Origin: a virus
Taxonomy: Duplodnaviria; Heunggongvirae; Uroviricota; Caudoviricetes
Strand: one strand, 5' to 3'
DNA: 24,587 bases
IMG/VR virus record: IMGVR_UViG_2724679236_000014
Coordinates: 1-24,587 of that record
Made by a program: the position numbers and the translations under genes. Position 1 is the first letter of the stretch. The number at the start of each line of letters is the position of its first letter. Under the pieces are notes generated by a model. It was not told where the DNA came from, searched no databases, and saw only the letters and a list, made by a program, of their open reading frames with translations. Positions 12,009-17,582 of the stretch are shown here, in pieces.

Positions 12009-14324
12009 TTAAATCCGAAGTGATGTAACTCTTCCGGTCGGTTTGACAATAGGGAATTGCTTAACAATAAAATAACCTCCGGCATCATTCGGGTGATCGT
12101 TGCCAGATTTTTTATCAGGCTCACCCTTGTCATCCCAGACCTGTTGCTCCAGAGATTCGGCATATACCGGACAACGCTTCACATTAACTTTATAGCGACG
12201 CTCACCATTGGCATTGCAGAACATTGCATTCATTGAGTTAACGCGATCTTTTACTGGCGGATTCGAACTGTTTACAACAACGTTAAAACCAGCCTGTTTA
12301 AGTTGAGCAATATCCGTCGCACTTGCGTTATTTGATTTTCTGGAATCCCCGGATGCATCAGGATAAATATAAATTTCCCTTACTTTCCGATAATCATTCC
12401 CGTCATATAACCAGAAGCGCTCTTTAATAATACGGATCATATCTGGTGTATCGTAAGCGTTAATGATTTCAGTTACTGCACATGGAAGCCCAAAACGTAA
12501 CACATGAACGACTCCAGCCATTTTTCCGACGTTAAAATCCATCCCGATATATATCGGCTCACCTGGCTGTTCCTCTTCTTCGCAATTATTCAGTTTTCGG
12601 TCAAACTGATGGTAAACAGTACCACTTGTCAGGTTAGTAAACTGTCCTCGAAGATAGGCTTTAATCAGCTCTGGAGGATATGACTCAAGGAGCGAGGGAA
12701 TGTAATCTGCTGGCAAATTCTTTTCATTATCGAAAGTAGATGCCTGTACCAGACCATACAGTGAGACCAGCTCTGTTTTTTCACGTACGGCTTTAACAAA
12801 CTGCTCGTAGACAAATTTGAATCCTTCCGGCGTGGTTGTAACGTCAATACCGTTGCGAAGTCCATCAACCTTATAACGCATACGCGCAATTATCTTGCGC
12901 CACGCTGTTCTGGCTTTTTCCTTCGGCAAAATGTCCAGTTCATCCACCAGCGCATTACCAATTTTGAAACCGACGATCGTTTGCGGCTTCTCCATCGATC
13001 TGCAGATAGTGGTTCCCCGATACTGACGTCCGTAATAAAAATGAACTTCTTTATTTCCCTCGTTAATTTTTACATTTAGCCCCCAGTCGGCAGCAACTTC
13101 TTCAACTGTGGGATAAAAAATATCGCGAATTTGTGGATATGTAGGCGCAAAATATCCCTGATTGATACCCGGATGCTCCCAAATCCCCTTACATATGCCA
13201 CCACACCCAACCCATGTTTTACCGCTATTGTGATGAATCGTCCCATCAGCAGTTACGTAGCAGTTATTATCCAATACCTGGAGGTCATAATATGGCTCGG
13301 CCTCCTGCAACAGTGTTACACTCAATATGTTGCAGGTTTCGATTAAGGAGTTTGGTTTTGACGCCTCTTGACCATTTAATTTGTGATTTAGCACATCCAG
13401 AACGTACCGTTTCAGAAGTTGCTTCTCTGGCAGGTTGTGACCGCAGTCATGTTTATCGTTGCATATCTCGTTATGGGTTAACGCTGAAACAACGCCAGAA
13501 GCCTGTCCCTCGAGAAAATGCGAAGGACAGAATCCTCGCTCTTGCTGATGGTCACCGTACGTCGGCAGAGATCGCGGCGGAAGTTGGTTGCACAGAAAAG
13601 CACGTTCAAAATATTCTCCGAATTCACAACGCCAACCGGCTCCCCCGTGGCGCCAGAAAGGGTGAGTTGAACCCCAGCTTTCGTGGTGGTCGAATTGTTG
13701 ATCTGGATGGATATGCCGTTGTTCCAGCGCCTGCTGACCATCCATATATGCGCAGAACAGGCATGATGTTTGAACATCGTTTGATCGCTGAAAAGAAGCT
13801 GGGGCGTTATCTGCTGCCATCAGAAGTTGTTGACCATATCGACGGGCTTCATCTGCATAACACCCCAAGTAATCTGCGAGTTTTTGATTCAAACGTGGAT
13901 CACCTGCGTGCAACGATTTCGGGACGGCGGCCAAACTGGTCAGAAGAAGGTTTTGCGAAGATGCAAATACCTTCACCGATTCGTCCAGACTATCCACAGA
14001 TCGATAGCTACCGTCAGCGCAAAAAACGCGGTGATGTCCGCTTGCTACAAATTCTCCTCGCTGCGTCACTACTCGGTATAGATTCGCCACACCTTTTGGG
14101 TACGCACCACCACTTAGCGAAAGCTCAAATCGATTATTCTCATCCGACCAAGATAAAACGCGCATTGGTCGAGTTATTTCCTGAATGGGTAGAATCCCAT
14201 TCTCTGTAACCACAGGCGTACTTCCCCTCAGGCAACCAAAACCAGCAACATAGGCTTTAAATTTATGATGCATAGAAAGAAATCGCGCCTGAGGCACATT
14301 AAGCGTCGGAGAGATCATCTTCAT
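12009..14324 (-). CDS. Terminase large subunit interrupted by an in-frame intein in the Walker A P-loop; predicted spliced product about 435 aa
   Basis: Exteins join as ...KAYVAGFG + SGKTW..., giving the Walker A motif AGFGSGKT; Walker B-like ALVDELD and nuclease-type IYIGMDFN and YPDASG motifs lie in the C-extein. Start is uncertain (ATG at 14324, 14318 or 14345); the supplied ORF's further N-terminal extension to 14756 overlaps terS in another frame and is not taken as coding. Confidence 0.85.
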   Translation of the reverse strand: MKMISPTLNVPQARFLSMHHKFKAYVAGFGCLRGSTPVVTENGILPIQEITRPMRVLSWSDENNRFELSLSGGAYPKGVANLYRVVTQRGEFVASGHHRVFCADGSYRSVDSLDESVKVFASSQNLLLTSLAAVPKSLHAGDPRLNQKLADYLGCYADEARRYGQQLLMAADNAPASFQRSNDVQTSCLFCAYMDGQQALEQRHIHPDQQFDHHESWGSTHPFWRHGGAGWRCEFGEYFERAFLCNQLPPRSLPTYGDHQQERGFCPSHFLEGQASGVVSALTHNEICNDKHDCGHNLPEKQLLKRYVLDVLNHKLNGQEASKPNSLIETCNILSVTLLQEAEPYYDLQVLDNNCYVTADGTIHHNSGKTWVGCGGICKGIWEHPGINQGYFAPTYPQIRDIFYPTVEEVAADWGLNVKINEGNKEVHFYYGRQYRGTTICRSMEKPQTIVGFKIGNALVDELDILPKEKARTAWRKIIARMRYKVDGLRNGIDVTTTPEGFKFVYEQFVKAVREKTELVSLYGLVQASTFDNEKNLPADYIPSLLESYPPELIKAYLRGQFTNLTSGTVYHQFDRKLNNCEEEEQPGEPIYIGMDFNVGKMAGVVHVLRFGLPCAVTEIINAYDTPDMIRIIKERFWLYDGNDYRKVREIYIYPDASGDSRKSNNASATDIAQLKQAGFNVVVNSSNPPVKDRVNSMNAMFCNANGERRYKVNVKRCPVYAESLEQQVWDDKGEPDKKSGNDHPNDAGGYFIVKQFPIVKPTGRVTSLRI
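13227..14234 (-). mobile_element. Intein (336 codons) inserted in the TerL P-loop
   Basis: Block A-like CLRGSTPVVTENG starts with Cys at 14234..14232; block B-like SGHHRVF; C-terminal blocks YYDLQVLDNNCYVTADGTIHHN end with His-Asn (Asn codon 13229..13227) and are followed by Ser(+1). Codons were checked against the plus-strand sequence. Confidence 0.8.
13358..14209 (+). CDS. HTH-HNH homing-endonuclease-like ORF encoded antisense inside the intein (TTG start, about 283 aa)
   Basis: Plus-strand translation contains HNH_3-like EHRLIAEKKLGRYLLPSEVVDHIDGLHLHNTPSNLRVFDSNVDH and two HTH-like segments; TAAGGAG (13344-13350) lies 7 nt upstream of an in-frame TTG at 13358. The C-terminal ~95 codons overlap the intein N-terminal blocks on the other strand and look like non-coding read-through. 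Confidence 0.55.
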   Translation: MTPLDHLICDLAHPERTVSEVASLAGCDRSHVYRCISRYGLTLKQRQKPVPRENAKDRILALADGHRTSAEIAAEVGCTEKHVQNILRIHNANRLPRGARKGELNPSFRGGRIVDLDGYAVVPAPADHPYMRRTGMMFEHRLIAEKKLGRYLLPSEVVDHIDGLHLHNTPSNLRVFDSNVDHLRATISGRRPNWSEEGFAKMQIPSPIRPDYPQIDSYRQRKKRGDVRLLQILLAASLLGIDSPHLLGTHHHLAKAQIDYSHPTKIKRALVELFPEWVESHSL

Positions 14325-15393
14325 CACACCTAACTCTGGCATCAACCACATTAATATTGATCGCCACAGGCTGGGGATGTTCATTACCCTCCACCGTTTC
14401 GATCTCTTTGCGCAGTTTCTGGTTTTCCATTCTGCGCCGTTCAATTTCCAGTTCCTGTAGTCGCTTATCTGCACATAATGCCCCGCCAGCGGAAAGCAAA
14501 CGCAATAATTCACGCCGGGCGGCAGCTTTATTCTCCAGCAGGATCTCAACGCCGAATTTTCCGAGCTTTGCTCCTGCATACAATTGCCGCGCATTTCCAT
14601 CAAGCAAAGTGGTATCAGCCATATAAAGCTGACCTGTACCTTCTCCACCGCATTTCGGACAGTCTGGATTTGGTATGGCGCTATCAACGAAACCGAGGCC
14701 ACCATATTCAGGTTCTGGTTTACCATCTTTGGATGCCTGCGCGGCAGCCCTGTCAAATTCTGCTATATCGCGCCACTGATAGAGGTGATTCTCCCCCCAG
14801 CAATAGCGACAGTTAACACGGCGAAATTGCGCAAGCTGATTGGGATCAGCCTGCACGATGGCCATCAACTGACTCACCAGTAAATCCAGGTCTGCGGTAT
14901 AGCGTTTCTGGTAATGATTGCGAAAGTAGCTGATGGCACGAAAAACCCTAGCATTTCTAAGCATACGACTGGCATTGCTGTTTGCTGTCGCACCTTGCCC
15001 CTCGTAACCAGCCAGGCGGTATGCCTCTGTCGGCTTTTTCCCCTGAGCAACCAACATGGCGAATTTTGCCTGCTGGTCAGAAATACCGAATTCATCGGGG
15101 CAAAACGAAATTTCTTCCGTGTCCCCCTCAATCAGGAGTGCATCGGATACAGCCTTTTTTTTCTGAGATTTTCCGTTTTGCTTTTGCGCAGTCTGCGCAG
15201 TTTTTTTTCGCGCACTTTTTTGCGCAGTTTTGCGCACTTCTGTCTGCGCATTTTTCGGAGGTTTCTTGATGTAACGACGGGCTGTTGCGTAATTCAGTCC
15301 CTTTGCTTCACACCACGCCACCGGAGATACACCGGAGCGGGTGTATTCAGCAATATATTCCTGCTGCAACGCCCCCCAGTCCGGTCTGCTCAT
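14299..15393 (-). CDS. Terminase small subunit-like protein (364 aa): N-terminal HTH, Lys/Arg-rich repeat linker, C-terminal CxxC...CxxC zinc ribbon
   Basis: Supplied ORF immediately upstream of and overlapping terL; N-terminus (EYIAEYTRSGVSPVAWCEAKGLNYATARRYI) resembles TerS DNA-binding domains; CRYC and CPKC pairs. Confidence 0.6.
   Translation of the reverse strand: MSRPDWGALQQEYIAEYTRSGVSPVAWCEAKGLNYATARRYIKKPPKNAQTEVRKTAQKSARKKTAQTAQKQNGKSQKKKAVSDALLIEGDTEEISFCPDEFGISDQQAKFAMLVAQGKKPTEAYRLAGYEGQGATANSNASRMLRNARVFRAISYFRNHYQKRYTADLDLLVSQLMAIVQADPNQLAQFRRVNCRYCWGENHLYQWRDIAEFDRAAAQASKDGKPEPEYGGLGFVDSAIPNPDCPKCGGEGTGQLYMADTTLLDGNARQLYAGAKLGKFGVEILLENKAAARRELLRLLSAGGALCADKRLQELEIERRRMENQKLRKEIETVEGNEHPQPVAININVVDARVRCDEDDLSDA
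15185..15250. repeat. Array of six (T/C)GCGCA palindromic hexamers separated by T-tracts, inside terS
   Basis: Hexamers start at 15185, 15194, 15209 (cgcgca), 15221, 15231 and 15245, spaced 9-15 bp apart with intervening T runs. Confidence 0.6.
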
Positions 15394-15396
15394 CAG

Positions 15397-15648
15397 TTAG
15401 TCCTGATTTTTATCCACCCTGAGTAATGCACGCAGAGCAAAGGCATCCCCTTTTCTGGCAAGCTTAAACAATGCCGCCCGTAGCTCGGCTTCACCTTTCG
15501 CTCTGCCCTTACGGATGGACGCATAAAAATTTGTCATTGTTTCCCGATTTTCTTTCAGTCTGTTCAGATCAACATCCAGAACGTCAGCGATTTGTTGTGC
15601 AGTCATCCGGCATGCTGCCAGAGACTCGACTTTCGAATACGGAATCAT
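15397..15648 (-). CDS. Small HTH-containing protein (83 aa), possibly packaging-associated or regulatory
   Basis: Supplied ORF ending 3 nt before the terS start; TAQQIADVLDVDLNRL resembles a helix-turn-helix. Confidence 0.4.
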   Translation of the reverse strand: MIPYSKVESLAACRMTAQQIADVLDVDLNRLKENRETMTNFYASIRKGRAKGEAELRAALFKLARKGDAFALRALLRVDKNQD

Positions 15649-16516
15649 TTATCACCCCCATTGATATGCAGGGTGTCTTCTTCCTGTATTTTTCGTGAAG
15701 GATTTTTACTGCAGCGTTGTTCCAGGTGACCTGATGGTGAATGCGTTTATGGCTGGCGCCCATCAGTGAGATTTTTACGCACGACGGCGCATACATGACG
15801 GAGTAAAAACTTTTAACGTAGGTACCGGAATCCAGATACAGTTCGGTCATTCCGCCGCTGTTTTTCTGCGTTTGCTTCTGCCCTAACTGGACAGCGCCAA
15901 TCGTCAAAAACAATTCACCACGACGACCGAGATTCGTGTATGTATTCACATCCTCGTTAATACGCCCCATAAATGAGAATGGTCGGTCAACAGAACAAAT
16001 AAAGCTGTTCATTGCTTTGCGTTTCACCCATGCAGCATGACCACCATTATCACCAAGAAAGTCTCCCCCCTGCGCCATAGCGATGGAAAGCGCAGGAATT
16101 GATTCGTAATACGCCAGCATTTCAGAAAGGATCGCGTCCAGTTTCCTTATCGGAAAATAAGCCTGGTCATAGTTGCGATCTACCCGAAACTGAAACTCGT
16201 GATAGTCGTCATCAAGCTGGATGTAGTATTTACACCCAACCTTTTTTGCCAGGCCCAAACAGGCATTCCTAGCATAAAAGATTGAACGTCGATCGCCAAA
16301 GTTGTCGGCTTCGTCAAAACGACTGGCGATATCGGCTTTGGAAAACACCAGCACCTGCTCACCAAATTCTGCTACGTACTGATGCTGGGTTTTATCTTCA
16401 TCATCAACAACGATAAAAATTTTCCCGGTATAGCCAGCACGACGCAACGTCCGGTAAGTCAGAACTTTGTCCGGTCGCCCGTGAGTCAGAATAAAGGCGC
16501 AAAAATCATCACGCAT
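15584..16516 (-). CDS. GT-A fold (family 2-like) glycosyltransferase-like protein with no obvious membrane segment (about 310 aa from ATG 16516)
   Basis: N-terminal FILTHGRPDKV...IFIVVDDEDK resembles the GT2 signature (hhhPTYNR...IVVDDGS); a DDD (DxD-like) motif sits in YIQLDDDYHEF. The ATG at 16516 follows GAGGAGGAG and the ParB-like stop (TAATATG). Confidence 0.45.
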   Translation of the reverse strand: MRDDFCAFILTHGRPDKVLTYRTLRRAGYTGKIFIVVDDEDKTQHQYVAEFGEQVLVFSKADIASRFDEADNFGDRRSIFYARNACLGLAKKVGCKYYIQLDDDYHEFQFRVDRNYDQAYFPIRKLDAILSEMLAYYESIPALSIAMAQGGDFLGDNGGHAAWVKRKAMNSFICSVDRPFSFMGRINEDVNTYTNLGRRGELFLTIGAVQLGQKQTQKNSGGMTELYLDSGTYVKSFYSVMYAPSCVKISLMGASHKRIHHQVTWNNAAVKILHEKYRKKTPCISMGVINDSVFESRVSGSMPDDCTTNR

Positions 16517-16517
16517 A

Positions 16518-17297
16518 TTACTCCTCCTCGCCATGCATGATCTCCACCATGCGCTGCGTCATCCTGACAAACCCATTTTCAATTGCCTGCTGATAATCAA
16601 TGATCACCAGAGCCGATTCCTCAAAAAGGCTCTGAATTTCAGCGGGGGCGTGAGCGTAATAGTCCGCGATTCTGCTGAAATTAAACACCGTGTGACGTTC
16701 TGCCGCGCACAGAAGGAATTTCTCAATATCAGGATCAAGGGACACCGAACGTATCCGGCTGATCAGCTCCTGAGTTTTCGTATCGTCGTACAGTTCACAG
16801 ATATCCGGTTTATCGCCTGACGGCTCATAAACAGGCGTATCAATTTTCGTCGTATACGGCTCCTCCTCATTTCCTGTACCAGGCAAAATATCCGTCAACA
16901 GTTCATCAATTTCTGTCGGGCTGAAGCCTGTCAGGGAGACATCAAAATCAGCATTAATTAGGTCCGACAGCTCCATCCGTAACAGATCTTCATCCCAGCC
17001 AGCATTCATCGGCAGGCGATTATCTGCCAGACGGTACGCCTTTTTCTGATCATCCGTCAGACCAGACAGAACGATGACCGGAACGAAATCCATTTTGAGC
17101 ACTTCAGCCGCCATAACGCGACCGTGACCCGCAATAACTTCGCCTTTTTCATCAATCAGCACCGGATTAGTCCAGCCAAATTGCTTAATGCTTTCTACCA
17201 GTTGCGTCACCTGCTCAGGGCTGTGTGTCCTGGCATTGTGTGCATACGGAGACAGTTCTTGTAACGGGCGATAGACGATCTTCAATTTCTCGCTCAT
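16518..17297 (-). CDS. ParB-like nuclease domain protein (259 aa)
   Basis: N-terminal ParB/Srx-type motifs: YAHNARTH and GHGRVMAA (GxxRxxA box); acidic C-terminus; GAGG RBS upstream of the ATG. Confidence 0.75.
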   Translation of the reverse strand: MSEKLKIVYRPLQELSPYAHNARTHSPEQVTQLVESIKQFGWTNPVLIDEKGEVIAGHGRVMAAEVLKMDFVPVIVLSGLTDDQKKAYRLADNRLPMNAGWDEDLLRMELSDLINADFDVSLTGFSPTEIDELLTDILPGTGNEEEPYTTKIDTPVYEPSGDKPDICELYDDTKTQELISRIRSVSLDPDIEKFLLCAAERHTVFNFSRIADYYAHAPAEIQSLFEESALVIIDYQQAIENGFVRMTQRMVEIMHGEEE

Positions 17298-17582
17298 ACA
17301 GCCTCGCTTTATTAATAAAAAAGCCCGCTATCGGCCAGTGCGCAGGGTGCGCGGCGGGTGCAGATAACGAGCTTTGACATTATCGAAGCCCCCTATCAAA
17401 GGAGCTTCTGTAATGTCAGTCCAGAACGAACGTAACCTTTGTATTTGTCGCTCGCCGTACAAGACGCGCTGCTTCGCGTTGCATTTCATCGATAACTTTT
17501 GGCGTCATCGGCTAATGCGCATGTTTACATTCAATCACTGCAAAAAATCCCGTTCATCGTTTCGCTGTCTGGTGGGATAACT

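Follow-up and report, generated by a model that had tools for sequence, protein, structure and literature searches.

Known pathways of DNA glycosylation start from a hydroxylated pyrimidine, which is the product of either a TET/JBP-type oxidase or a thymidylate-synthase homologue. What, then, is a DNA-type glycosyltransferase (GT) for when its phage carries no such enzyme? The question is raised by two adjoining genes of an enterobacterial prophage, IMG/VR record IMGVR_UViG_2724679236_000014, which we analysed over the whole stretch of 24,587 nt (the window, to which all coordinates refer). One of them encodes a 310-aa member of the Pfam family TAGT and the other a 259-aa helper protein with a ParB fold. 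The cassette keeps both proteins without an oxidase or synthase of this kind, yet it is conserved from Rac-like prophages of E. coli to haloarchaeal viruses. The identities of the genes are already in the databases; the new question is the role of a TAGT-ParB pair without oxidase. The answer would be either an unrecognised DNA modification, or new acceptor chemistry, in some of the best-studied phage-host systems, or a second, non-DNA role of the family that is tied to packaging.

The glycosyltransferase and its ParB-fold partner

The pair consists of two intact minus-strand genes. They lie between the lysis genes (holin, lysozyme, Rz and Rz1) on one side and the terminase genes (TerS and TerL) on the other, which is the position that a prediction made earlier from the letters of the DNA (the original prediction) had given them. 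The open reading frames (ORFs) and their junction are as follows:

16518..17297, minus strand: ParB-fold protein, 259 aa (ORF and family matches)
16514..16534, minus strand: coupling junction, read from the sequence, with Shine-Dalgarno site, ParB stop, spacer and TAGT start
15584..16516, minus strand: TAGT glycosyltransferase, 310 aa (ORF and Pfam/PHROG matches)

The second frame is open from 16534, which would give 316 aa; the homologues begin at the ATG at 16516, which gives 310 aa. The junction reads GAGGAGGAG-TAA-T-ATG, that is, the ParB stop codon TAA (16518-16520) is followed by a 1-nt spacer and by the ATG of TAGT (16514-16516). A strong Shine-Dalgarno site for TAGT sits within the 3' end of the ParB gene, and because of this site and of a start that lies one base past the ParB stop, the translational coupling that had been proposed for the two genes is plausible.

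The 310-aa protein is a member of Pfam TAGT (PF20691, TET-associated glycosyltransferase), whose profile it matches over positions 4-205 of 205 with 123.4 bits (cut-off 27.5; E=1.5e-35), and it matches PHROG 842 with E=2e-99. PF20691 is also present in all of its listed homologues. By their profile scores, the family matches of both the 310-aa and the 259-aa protein lie far beyond chance. The original prediction had described the larger protein as soluble and GT2-like, with GT-A signatures. Solubility and fold are borne out: the highest 19-residue Kyte-Doolittle mean is only 1.08, and the protein therefore has no membrane segment, and the AlphaFold2 (AF2) model shows a soluble protein with the GT-A (nucleotide-diphospho-sugar transferase) fold and a DxD metal/donor site. 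The TxxR, DDED and DDD motifs were located as T11-H-G-R14 (HGR at 12-14), DDED 38-41 and the DxD in the form DDD 102-104; further motifs are NEDV 187-190, GGMT 221-224 and HH 260-261. The family label has to be changed, since there is no match to Pfam GT2 (PF00535, Glycos_transf_2) at E<=0.1 and PF20691 is found instead; kinship to GT2 exists only at the level of the GT-A fold. The assignment to TAGT is a more specific lead than GT2, namely to glycosylation of DNA bases.

A fold search with the model, proposed at the outset as the check that could remove the protein from the glycosyltransferases, left it among them: in a viral structure library it matched TAGT-domain proteins best. Another structural match is the 'beta-glucosyl-HMC-alpha-glucosyl-transferase' of a Klebsiella T4-like phage (E=3e-7). 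No solved structure was detected that matches TAGT by sequence, the PADLOC defence models gave no match to it, and NCBIfam has no model for it. The motifs of both TAGT and the ParB-fold protein are invariant or nearly so among 33 homologues, whereas the last ~27 residues of TAGT, which overlap the next ORF, are unconserved. TAGT has an intact DxD centre and presumably uses a nucleoside-diphosphate-sugar donor. Among enterobacterial alleles the ratio of nonsynonymous to synonymous substitution rates (dN/dS) is 0.08-0.16 for TAGT and 0.12-0.22 for ParB, and both genes are thus under purifying selection.

The 259-aa protein is a homologue of E. coli ynaK (PHROG 620, E=9e-88). Its score against Pfam ParB_N (PF02195), 25.1 bits, is just under the cut-off of 26.3, which its homologues pass. 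A profile built from its family matches only ParB/Noc nucleotide-binding domains in the PDB (~2e-5), and Foldseek matches of the model are Noc, ParB, PadC, KorB and Srx. Homologue profiles, PDB profile and Foldseek thus agree on a ParB/Srx N-terminal domain fold. The GxxRxxA box that had been noticed earlier is G57-H-G-R60-V-M-A63; its G57-H-G-R60 aligns with the GERR box and N93 with the Box III Asn, both are invariant, and nucleotide binding is predicted from this alignment. As GERR is replaced by GHGR (Glu to His), the hydrolysis glutamate is lost.

In the AF2 model, the nucleotide-binding domain (~1-95) is followed by a helix-helix segment (103-134), a disordered linker (136-165) and a C-terminal domain (166-255), which is all-helical and strongly conserved. 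The linker is acidic and carries the conserved motif PYTxKIDTPVYEPS (147-160), and the whole protein has an isoelectric point (pI) of 4.5 and a net charge of -25; the family as a whole has a pI of ~4.4. A cryptic dioxygenase in the C-terminal half was considered and ruled out, as this part of the model is all-helical and only ~95 residues long. The linker and C-terminal domain define a family of 1193 clusters at 50% identity and nearly always end proteins of ~260 aa. The N-terminal region, on the other hand, is shared more widely. Residues 1-136 have matches in 381 phage records, with 40-57% identity to the N-termini of phage proteins that carry the annotation DNA methyltransferase; the region matches PHROG 498 'DNA methyltransferase' at 1.6e-50 and the PADLOC type II methyltransferase model at 4e-38, which is the sole PADLOC match of the pair.

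The ParB-fold protein is not a canonical partition ParB (ParABS). No helix-turn-helix (HTH) DNA-binding domain is present in the AF2 model, no ParA was found among the window ORFs scanned with Pfam, and the search for parS-like repeats near the genes returned only short repeats at chance level and one 18-nt inverted repeat upstream. Moreover, the score against TIGR00180 (NCBIfam parB), 34.6 bits, is far below the cut-off of 58.45. The word 'nuclease' in the first description goes back to an old domain name: profile, fold and model comparisons gave no evidence for a nuclease, and what they reveal is a ParB-CTPase nucleotide-binding fold with a linker and a C-terminal domain.

Distribution and self-sufficiency of the pair

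The module is no oddity of this prophage. The 2.3-kb segment that contains the pair matches 1262 of 5426 complete E. coli genomes (23%) with 90-95% identity, 857 of them at a query coverage of at least 80%, and one IMG/VR contig (L011) is 100% identical. In E. coli, where the carriers are Rac-like prophages, NCBI names the products 'ynaK: ParB/Srx family N-terminal domain-containing protein' and 'GREB1-related protein', and the terminase subunits follow. The pair is a standard option of enterobacterial lambdoid prophages, and existing annotation already names its domains.

Metagenomic phages whose terminases are of the HK97, lambda GpA or T4 type also show the order ParB-TAGT-terminase, and so do Nocardia phage NTR1 and Porphyromonas gingivalis phages, with TAGT identity down to 26% in the latter. 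In two Lactobacillus phages, phi jlb1 of L. gasseri and c5 of L. delbrueckii, the pair forms ORF1-ORF2 and immediately follows cos, and the haloarchaeal virus HHTV-2 has it with eight small ORFs between pair and TerL. The pair spans phages of Proteobacteria, Firmicutes, Actinobacteria and Bacteroidota as well as a haloarchaeal virus. When E. coli prophages are compared with Lactobacillus or Haloarcula viruses, identity is 40-49% for both proteins, and nucleotide-binding domain, linker motif and C-terminal domain are common to the ParB partners of all these viruses.

We assembled 174 loci and applied the profiles of both proteins to each. The ParB ORF lies directly upstream of TAGT and abuts it in 158 of them, most of which show an overlap of 4-41 nt by the starts as the ORF caller placed them; two more loci have no upstream sequence. 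The remaining 14 are individual exceptions. In six loci a second TAGT paralogue stands between the two genes and in four a fusion of a His-phosphatase and a cytidylyl/adenylyl-transferase, while one metagenomic phage has a radical-SAM enzyme in this place (L148:936-1904, 322 aa, CxxxCxxC), which could possibly make the acceptor or modify the sugar. One locus has a frameshifted TAGT, the T4-like Aeromonas phage 65 has TAGT alone, and L113 encodes a natural 522-aa ParB-TAGT fusion. In 191-kb Vibrio phages TAGT is found among replication genes, directly after a 139-aa protein that corresponds only to the linker motif and the C-terminal domain of the ParB partner.

Because of the natural fusion, the adjacency in 158 of 174 loci and the reduced partner of the Vibrio phages, the two genes form one functional unit. 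ParB and TAGT are probably in physical contact and, judging from this comparison of architectures, the linker and C-terminal domain are the part of the ParB protein that is tied to TAGT. Between TAGT and the terminase, five loci have a UDP-galactopyranose mutase and four an NAD-dependent sugar epimerase/dehydratase; together, the inserted second TAGTs and the sugar-nucleotide enzymes argue for a real glycosylation pathway with varying donor sugars. Dereplication reduced the loci to 77 clusters. Among the 71 loci with at least 3 kb of downstream sequence, at least 50 encode a recognisable TerL no more than six genes downstream, most of the others have an ORF of 450-570 aa there, and the TerLs beside the pair belong to four Pfam families.

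Two observations on individual carriers were made in the course of this survey. Pair-carrying metagenomic phage sequences have two GT2-family genes just after the capsid genes (L002:15837-16894 and L003:8659-9716), a second, separate glycosylation system in one genome. Locus L174 (ON032529.1, 'Salmonella phage SPF_0923') was deposited as a complete phage genome and holds trkG together with the host genes sitABCD, uspF, ompN and a ydbK-like gene; it looks like a Rac-locus prophage region that was deposited along with its chromosomal flanks, and not like a packaged phage genome.

We then looked for enzymes that could provide a hydroxylated base. Essentially all window ORFs of at least 70 aa were searched, and none matches the Pfam families for TET_JBP (PF12851), 2-oxoglutarate oxygenases, thymidylate-synthase-like proteins or C5-methyltransferases; the profiles were general ones and not specific for phage 5mYOX enzymes, so that very divergent oxidases may escape them. 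No TET_JBP, thymidylate-synthase-like or C5-methyltransferase gene was seen either among the called genes of the related loci L002-L006, among the annotated recurrent neighbour clusters of the 77 dereplicated loci, or in what the depositors annotated in the complete genomes of c5 and phi jlb1 (32-38 kb). The TET/JBP dioxygenase neighbourhood of TAGT, which is a contextual and not a sequence-defining feature, is therefore lacking here. Since no TET/JBP dioxygenase, C5-methyltransferase or deoxynucleoside-monophosphate hydroxymethylase accompanies the pair, a 5-hydroxymethylcytosine (5hmC) or 5-hydroxymethyluracil (5hmU) acceptor is not supplied in cis.

Moreover, an all-against-all jackhmmer comparison was made of four unrelated complete genomes (c5, phi jlb1, Porphyromonas phage005b and HHTV-2). 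Only TAGT occurs in each of them; ParB is found in three, and in the fourth it aligns at 40%. No other enzyme-like family is common to them, and because there is no such third family the pair seems to be self-sufficient. A survey from New England Biolabs (NEB) reported that ~65% of GT-containing viral contigs have no neighbouring base-modification enzyme and left this unexplained (10.1101/2023.12.21.572611). The ParB-TAGT cassette is a well-defined and very large subset of that class.

Possible targets of the glycosyltransferase

DNA or virion modification and an accessory function in packaging had been named as plausible roles in the original prediction; the evidence still allows all of them, and we agree that the substrate cannot be read from the sequence. 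We tentatively favour, without going so far as to call it probable, a DNA glycosyltransferase that is loaded by a ParB adaptor and acts before packaging. The two genes, which come first in the packaging and structural operon and would be expressed late, would form one self-sufficient glycosylation module. The linker motif and C-terminal domain would dock the glycosyltransferase, and the nucleotide-binding domain would be an NTP-gated switch or clamp through which the enzyme gains productive access to double-stranded phage DNA. Newly replicated phage DNA would thus be sugar-modified just before or during packaging, which would probably blunt host nucleases.

DNA is the likely target because the ParB N-terminal domain is shared with phage proteins annotated as DNA methyltransferases and because there is a precedent in ParB and 5mYOX: a phage ParB homologue activates its cognate 5mYOX, a thymine dioxygenase, and does so specifically when the substrate is double-stranded DNA (O'Toole et al., 2026, PMC13229309). 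Moreover, GTs, ParBs and terminases are the commonest 5mYOX neighbours in the published 5mYOX surveys, and according to a recent survey ParB-methyltransferase fusions are enriched in phages and prophages. Both proteins remain 40-49% identical across hosts while the adjacent terminases and capsids are unrelated, which suggests a universal substrate, and a varied donor sugar is what would be expected of a glycan that is exposed to host defences. The fusion and the reduced partner point to the ParB region that contacts the enzyme and bear on how phage ParB homologues activate DNA-modifying enzymes.

A number of points weigh against DNA. Every characterised DNA glycosyltransferase needs a pre-installed hydroxyl, on 5hmC, 5hmU or 5-hydroxycytosine (5hoC) (PMC13326640), and no hydroxyl-making enzyme was seen in the window or in the flanks of the relatives examined. 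The ParB partner is very acidic throughout its family and has neither a recognisable DNA-binding domain nor parS-like repeats. GREB1, a eukaryotic member of the TAGT family, is reported to glycosylate protein (PMC7968844). Finally, our search of the published literature, outside of which the TAGT-defining paper (Iyer et al., 2013) fell, found no study of or experiment on a pair without 5mYOX. A bolder form of the proposal, that the pair glycosylates canonical, unoxidised DNA, or an ordinary DNA feature of every host, as the genome is readied for packaging, we consider unlikely. If it were true, about a quarter of E. coli genomes, as well as bacterial and archaeal viruses, would have a sugar modification of DNA that needs no hydroxymethyl or hydroxy precursor, and hence new chemistry. 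Because the pair occurs in ordinary E. coli prophages, this is directly testable with standard genetics and liquid chromatography-mass spectrometry.

TAGT may instead O-glycosylate a protein, either the linker motif of ParB (Y148, T149, T154, Y157 and S160) or a packaging or virion protein of the same operon, with ParB as substrate or scaffold rather than as DNA loader. We think this somewhat unlikely, but it is the strongest competitor. It would explain why the module does without an acceptor-making enzyme and why a conserved PYTxKIDTPVYEPS sits in a disordered linker, where even the minimal Vibrio partner keeps it; GREB1 as a reported protein O-linked N-acetylglucosamine (O-GlcNAc) transferase (PMC7968844), the position of the pair next to structural genes and the GT2 genes beside the capsid genes of some loci would also fit. 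However, when nine sequences are aligned across phyla, P155 is the one invariant residue of the motif, and the hydroxyls vary in the most distant member. The virion and terminase proteins of the carriers are unrelated although TAGT is 40-60% conserved, the Vibrio pair lies among replication and not structural genes, and the nucleotide-binding domain is shared with DNA methyltransferases. The family name, the characterised relatives that use 5hm-pyrimidine acceptors and the T-even beta-glucosyl-HMC-alpha-glucosyltransferase as structural relative recommend yet another possibility, that the sugar is added only to 5hmC or 5hmU which a 5mYOX or hydroxymethylase provides from elsewhere, for example from a co-infecting phage, and that the pair is a remnant or is idle when alone. 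A preprint brings up the idea that prophage GTs could act on invading modified genomes (10.1101/2023.12.21.572611). We nevertheless regard such dependence in trans as distinctly unlikely: both genes are under purifying selection, complete genomes that have the pair but no such enzyme come from virulent and temperate phages of four phyla and from an archaeal virus, and the pair is part of the phage's own late operon, not a lysogenic-conversion gene.

The two remaining explanations give up the link between the proteins, and the natural fusion and strict adjacency contradict it that ParB is an unrelated neighbour. One of them is that TAGT modifies an envelope or other host glycan and so causes superinfection exclusion, in the manner of the prophage teichoic-acid GlcNAc-transferase TarP or of the Gtr O-antigen systems. 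The sugar-nucleotide genes beside some cassettes would suit it; TAGT, in contrast, is soluble and without a membrane partner, the pair stands in a late operon, and the enzyme is conserved in Gram-negative, Gram-positive, actinobacterial and haloarchaeal hosts, which have no common envelope acceptor. This makes envelope modification very improbable. Least credible of all is that ParB serves as a partition protein or nuclease for prophage maintenance or packaging, independently of the glycosyltransferase, as the database names 'chromosome (plasmid) partitioning protein' and 'ParB-like nuclease' would have it. The prophage is integrated; ParA, HTH domain and parS-like repeats were not found, and the NCBIfam parB score is below the cut-off, as described above. 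Furthermore, the linker and C-terminal domain are almost confined to the ~260-aa architecture, the whole protein adjoins TAGT, and in the Vibrio phages it is the minimal partner made of these two parts that alone accompanies TAGT. Thus, an adaptor that brings TAGT to phage DNA remains our preferred, if tentative, reading.

The surrounding prophage and comparison with known systems

The genes on both sides of the pair are the following:

18590-18949: holin, lysis cassette, upstream of the pair
18110-18586: lysozyme, lysis cassette, upstream of the pair
17746-18126 / 17583-17927: Rz/Rz1, lysis cassette, upstream of the pair
15397..15648, minus strand: 83-aa ORF, match to PHROG 309 (terminase small subunit), E=2e-21
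14299-15393, minus strand: TerS, small terminase subunit, downstream neighbour (Pfam terminase matches)
start ~14324, stop 12009, minus strand: TerL, large terminase subunit, interrupted by an intein-like insert (Pfam)

The spacer between Rz1 and the ParB gene (17298-17582) holds an inverted repeat (17375-17392 / 17401-17418) with 18-nt arms that are 83% complementary and an 8-nt loop, and a 53-aa ORF (17328-17489) without family match. In relatives the same site holds other inserts, such as trkG in Rac-type prophages. The 83-aa ORF overlaps the 3' end of TAGT by 65 nt, lies directly upstream of the full TerS and matches only the middle of PHROG 309 (positions 145-215 of 319). Its E. coli counterpart, of 69 aa, is annotated as 'hypothetical protein'. 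A DNA-recognition part of the small terminase may be encoded separately here; for the module the ORF is only context.

Pfam matches in the terminase region (12009..15393) are Terminase_2, Terminase_6N and Terminase_6C. TerL is split inside Walker A (AGFG / SGKT) by a 336-aa intein-like insert (13227-14234, minus strand), which begins with CLRGSTPVV, has a GHHRVF block and ends with TIHHN, followed by S; no Hint domain was matched by Pfam in it. The opposite strand carries an almost coextensive 331-aa ORF (13214-14209) with HTH and HNH_3 domains, and the GC skew changes sign only at this insert. For ~200 residues in its middle, the 'intein' has the look of antisense read-through that is kept free of stops. 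Only one of the 5426 complete E. coli genomes, that of strain MEI003, contains the insert (99% identical, HNH annotated); other matches align only to the flanking terminase.

Further features of the window are:

23352-24587: integrase, running off the window
22775-23035: DUF1187
22618-22854: Lar
22193-22627: YqaJ-type exonuclease fragment
20889-21488: DUF1367, nin/Q region
20599-20889: YbcO, nin/Q region
20060-20602: DUF1133/Q-like, nin/Q region

The integrase, Lar, DUF1187 and exonuclease-fragment genes are within ~700 bp of the nin/Q-region genes, with no immunity or replication genes between them, and the prophage looks truncated (20889-24587). A lone plus-strand ORF (19168-19707, 179 aa) with a DUF2441 match (E=1.4e-6) lies within a stretch of low GC content (0.40-0.42) between the Q-like gene and the holin gene, an interval that is the usual place of lambdoid cargo genes.

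Among known systems, the chromosomal and plasmid CTPase clamps ParB, Noc and KorB share the nucleotide-binding fold with the 259-aa protein, which keeps the GxxR arginine and the Box III Asn; unlike them, it has no HTH domain, ParA or parS, has GHGR for GERR and is strongly acidic. On the side of the glycosyltransferase, the family includes the base-J glucosyltransferase JGT, and PHROG 842 bears the name of the T-even beta-glucosyl-HMC-alpha-glucosyltransferase. JGT and the T-even enzyme are TAGT-type GT-A enzymes that act on DNA, with 5hmU and glucosyl-5hmC as acceptors, which are made by JBP and by deoxycytidine-monophosphate (dCMP) hydroxymethylase, respectively. To our knowledge, neither enzyme needs a ParB partner, and the TAGT of Aeromonas phage 65 likewise has none. 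GREB1 is in the same Pfam family, to which the NCBI name of the E. coli protein refers. This large cytoplasmic protein, for which O-GlcNAcylation of the oestrogen receptor is reported (PMC7968844), differs from the E. coli protein in that it has neither a ParB partner nor a phage context.

We also compared the pair with the published clusters of 5mYOX, ParB and glycosyltransferase (Burke et al., 2021, PMC8256090; O'Toole et al., 2026, PMC13229309; preprint 10.1101/2023.12.21.572611). Both have a GT-A glycosyltransferase, here of Pfam TAGT, with TarP as structural neighbour; for those phage DNA glycosyltransferases whose activity was demonstrated by experiment, the PDB neighbour given in the preprint is TarP (10.1101/2023.12.21.572611). 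A terminase neighbourhood is frequent in both, as are accessory epimerases and second GTs. In its layout the 259-aa protein agrees with the published description of ParB176, which activates its 5mYOX (PMC13229309): it has a nucleotide-binding domain, a helix-helix segment, a disordered linker of ~30 aa and a C-terminal domain, but no DNA-binding domain. Its gene, too, stands beside that of an enzyme, with which it is fused in L113, but this enzyme is a GT and not a 5mYOX. In the published clusters, ParB-dependent oxidases are found mainly with kinases and amino-acid transferases, and GTs mainly with ParB-independent oxidases; here, ParB is paired directly with a GT, and no 5mYOX, C5-methyltransferase or thymidylate-synthase homologue was seen in the window, the related loci or the complete genomes examined. 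Finally, the phage fusions of ParB_N with DNA methyltransferases (PHROG 498; PADLOC MTase_II; PMC12704722) share the nucleotide-binding and helix-helix module with 40-57% identity, and in both cases a ParB-fold domain is paired with a modifying enzyme. In the fusions this enzyme is an N6/N4 methyltransferase in cis, whereas here it is a separate TAGT, paired through the family-specific linker and C-terminal domain.

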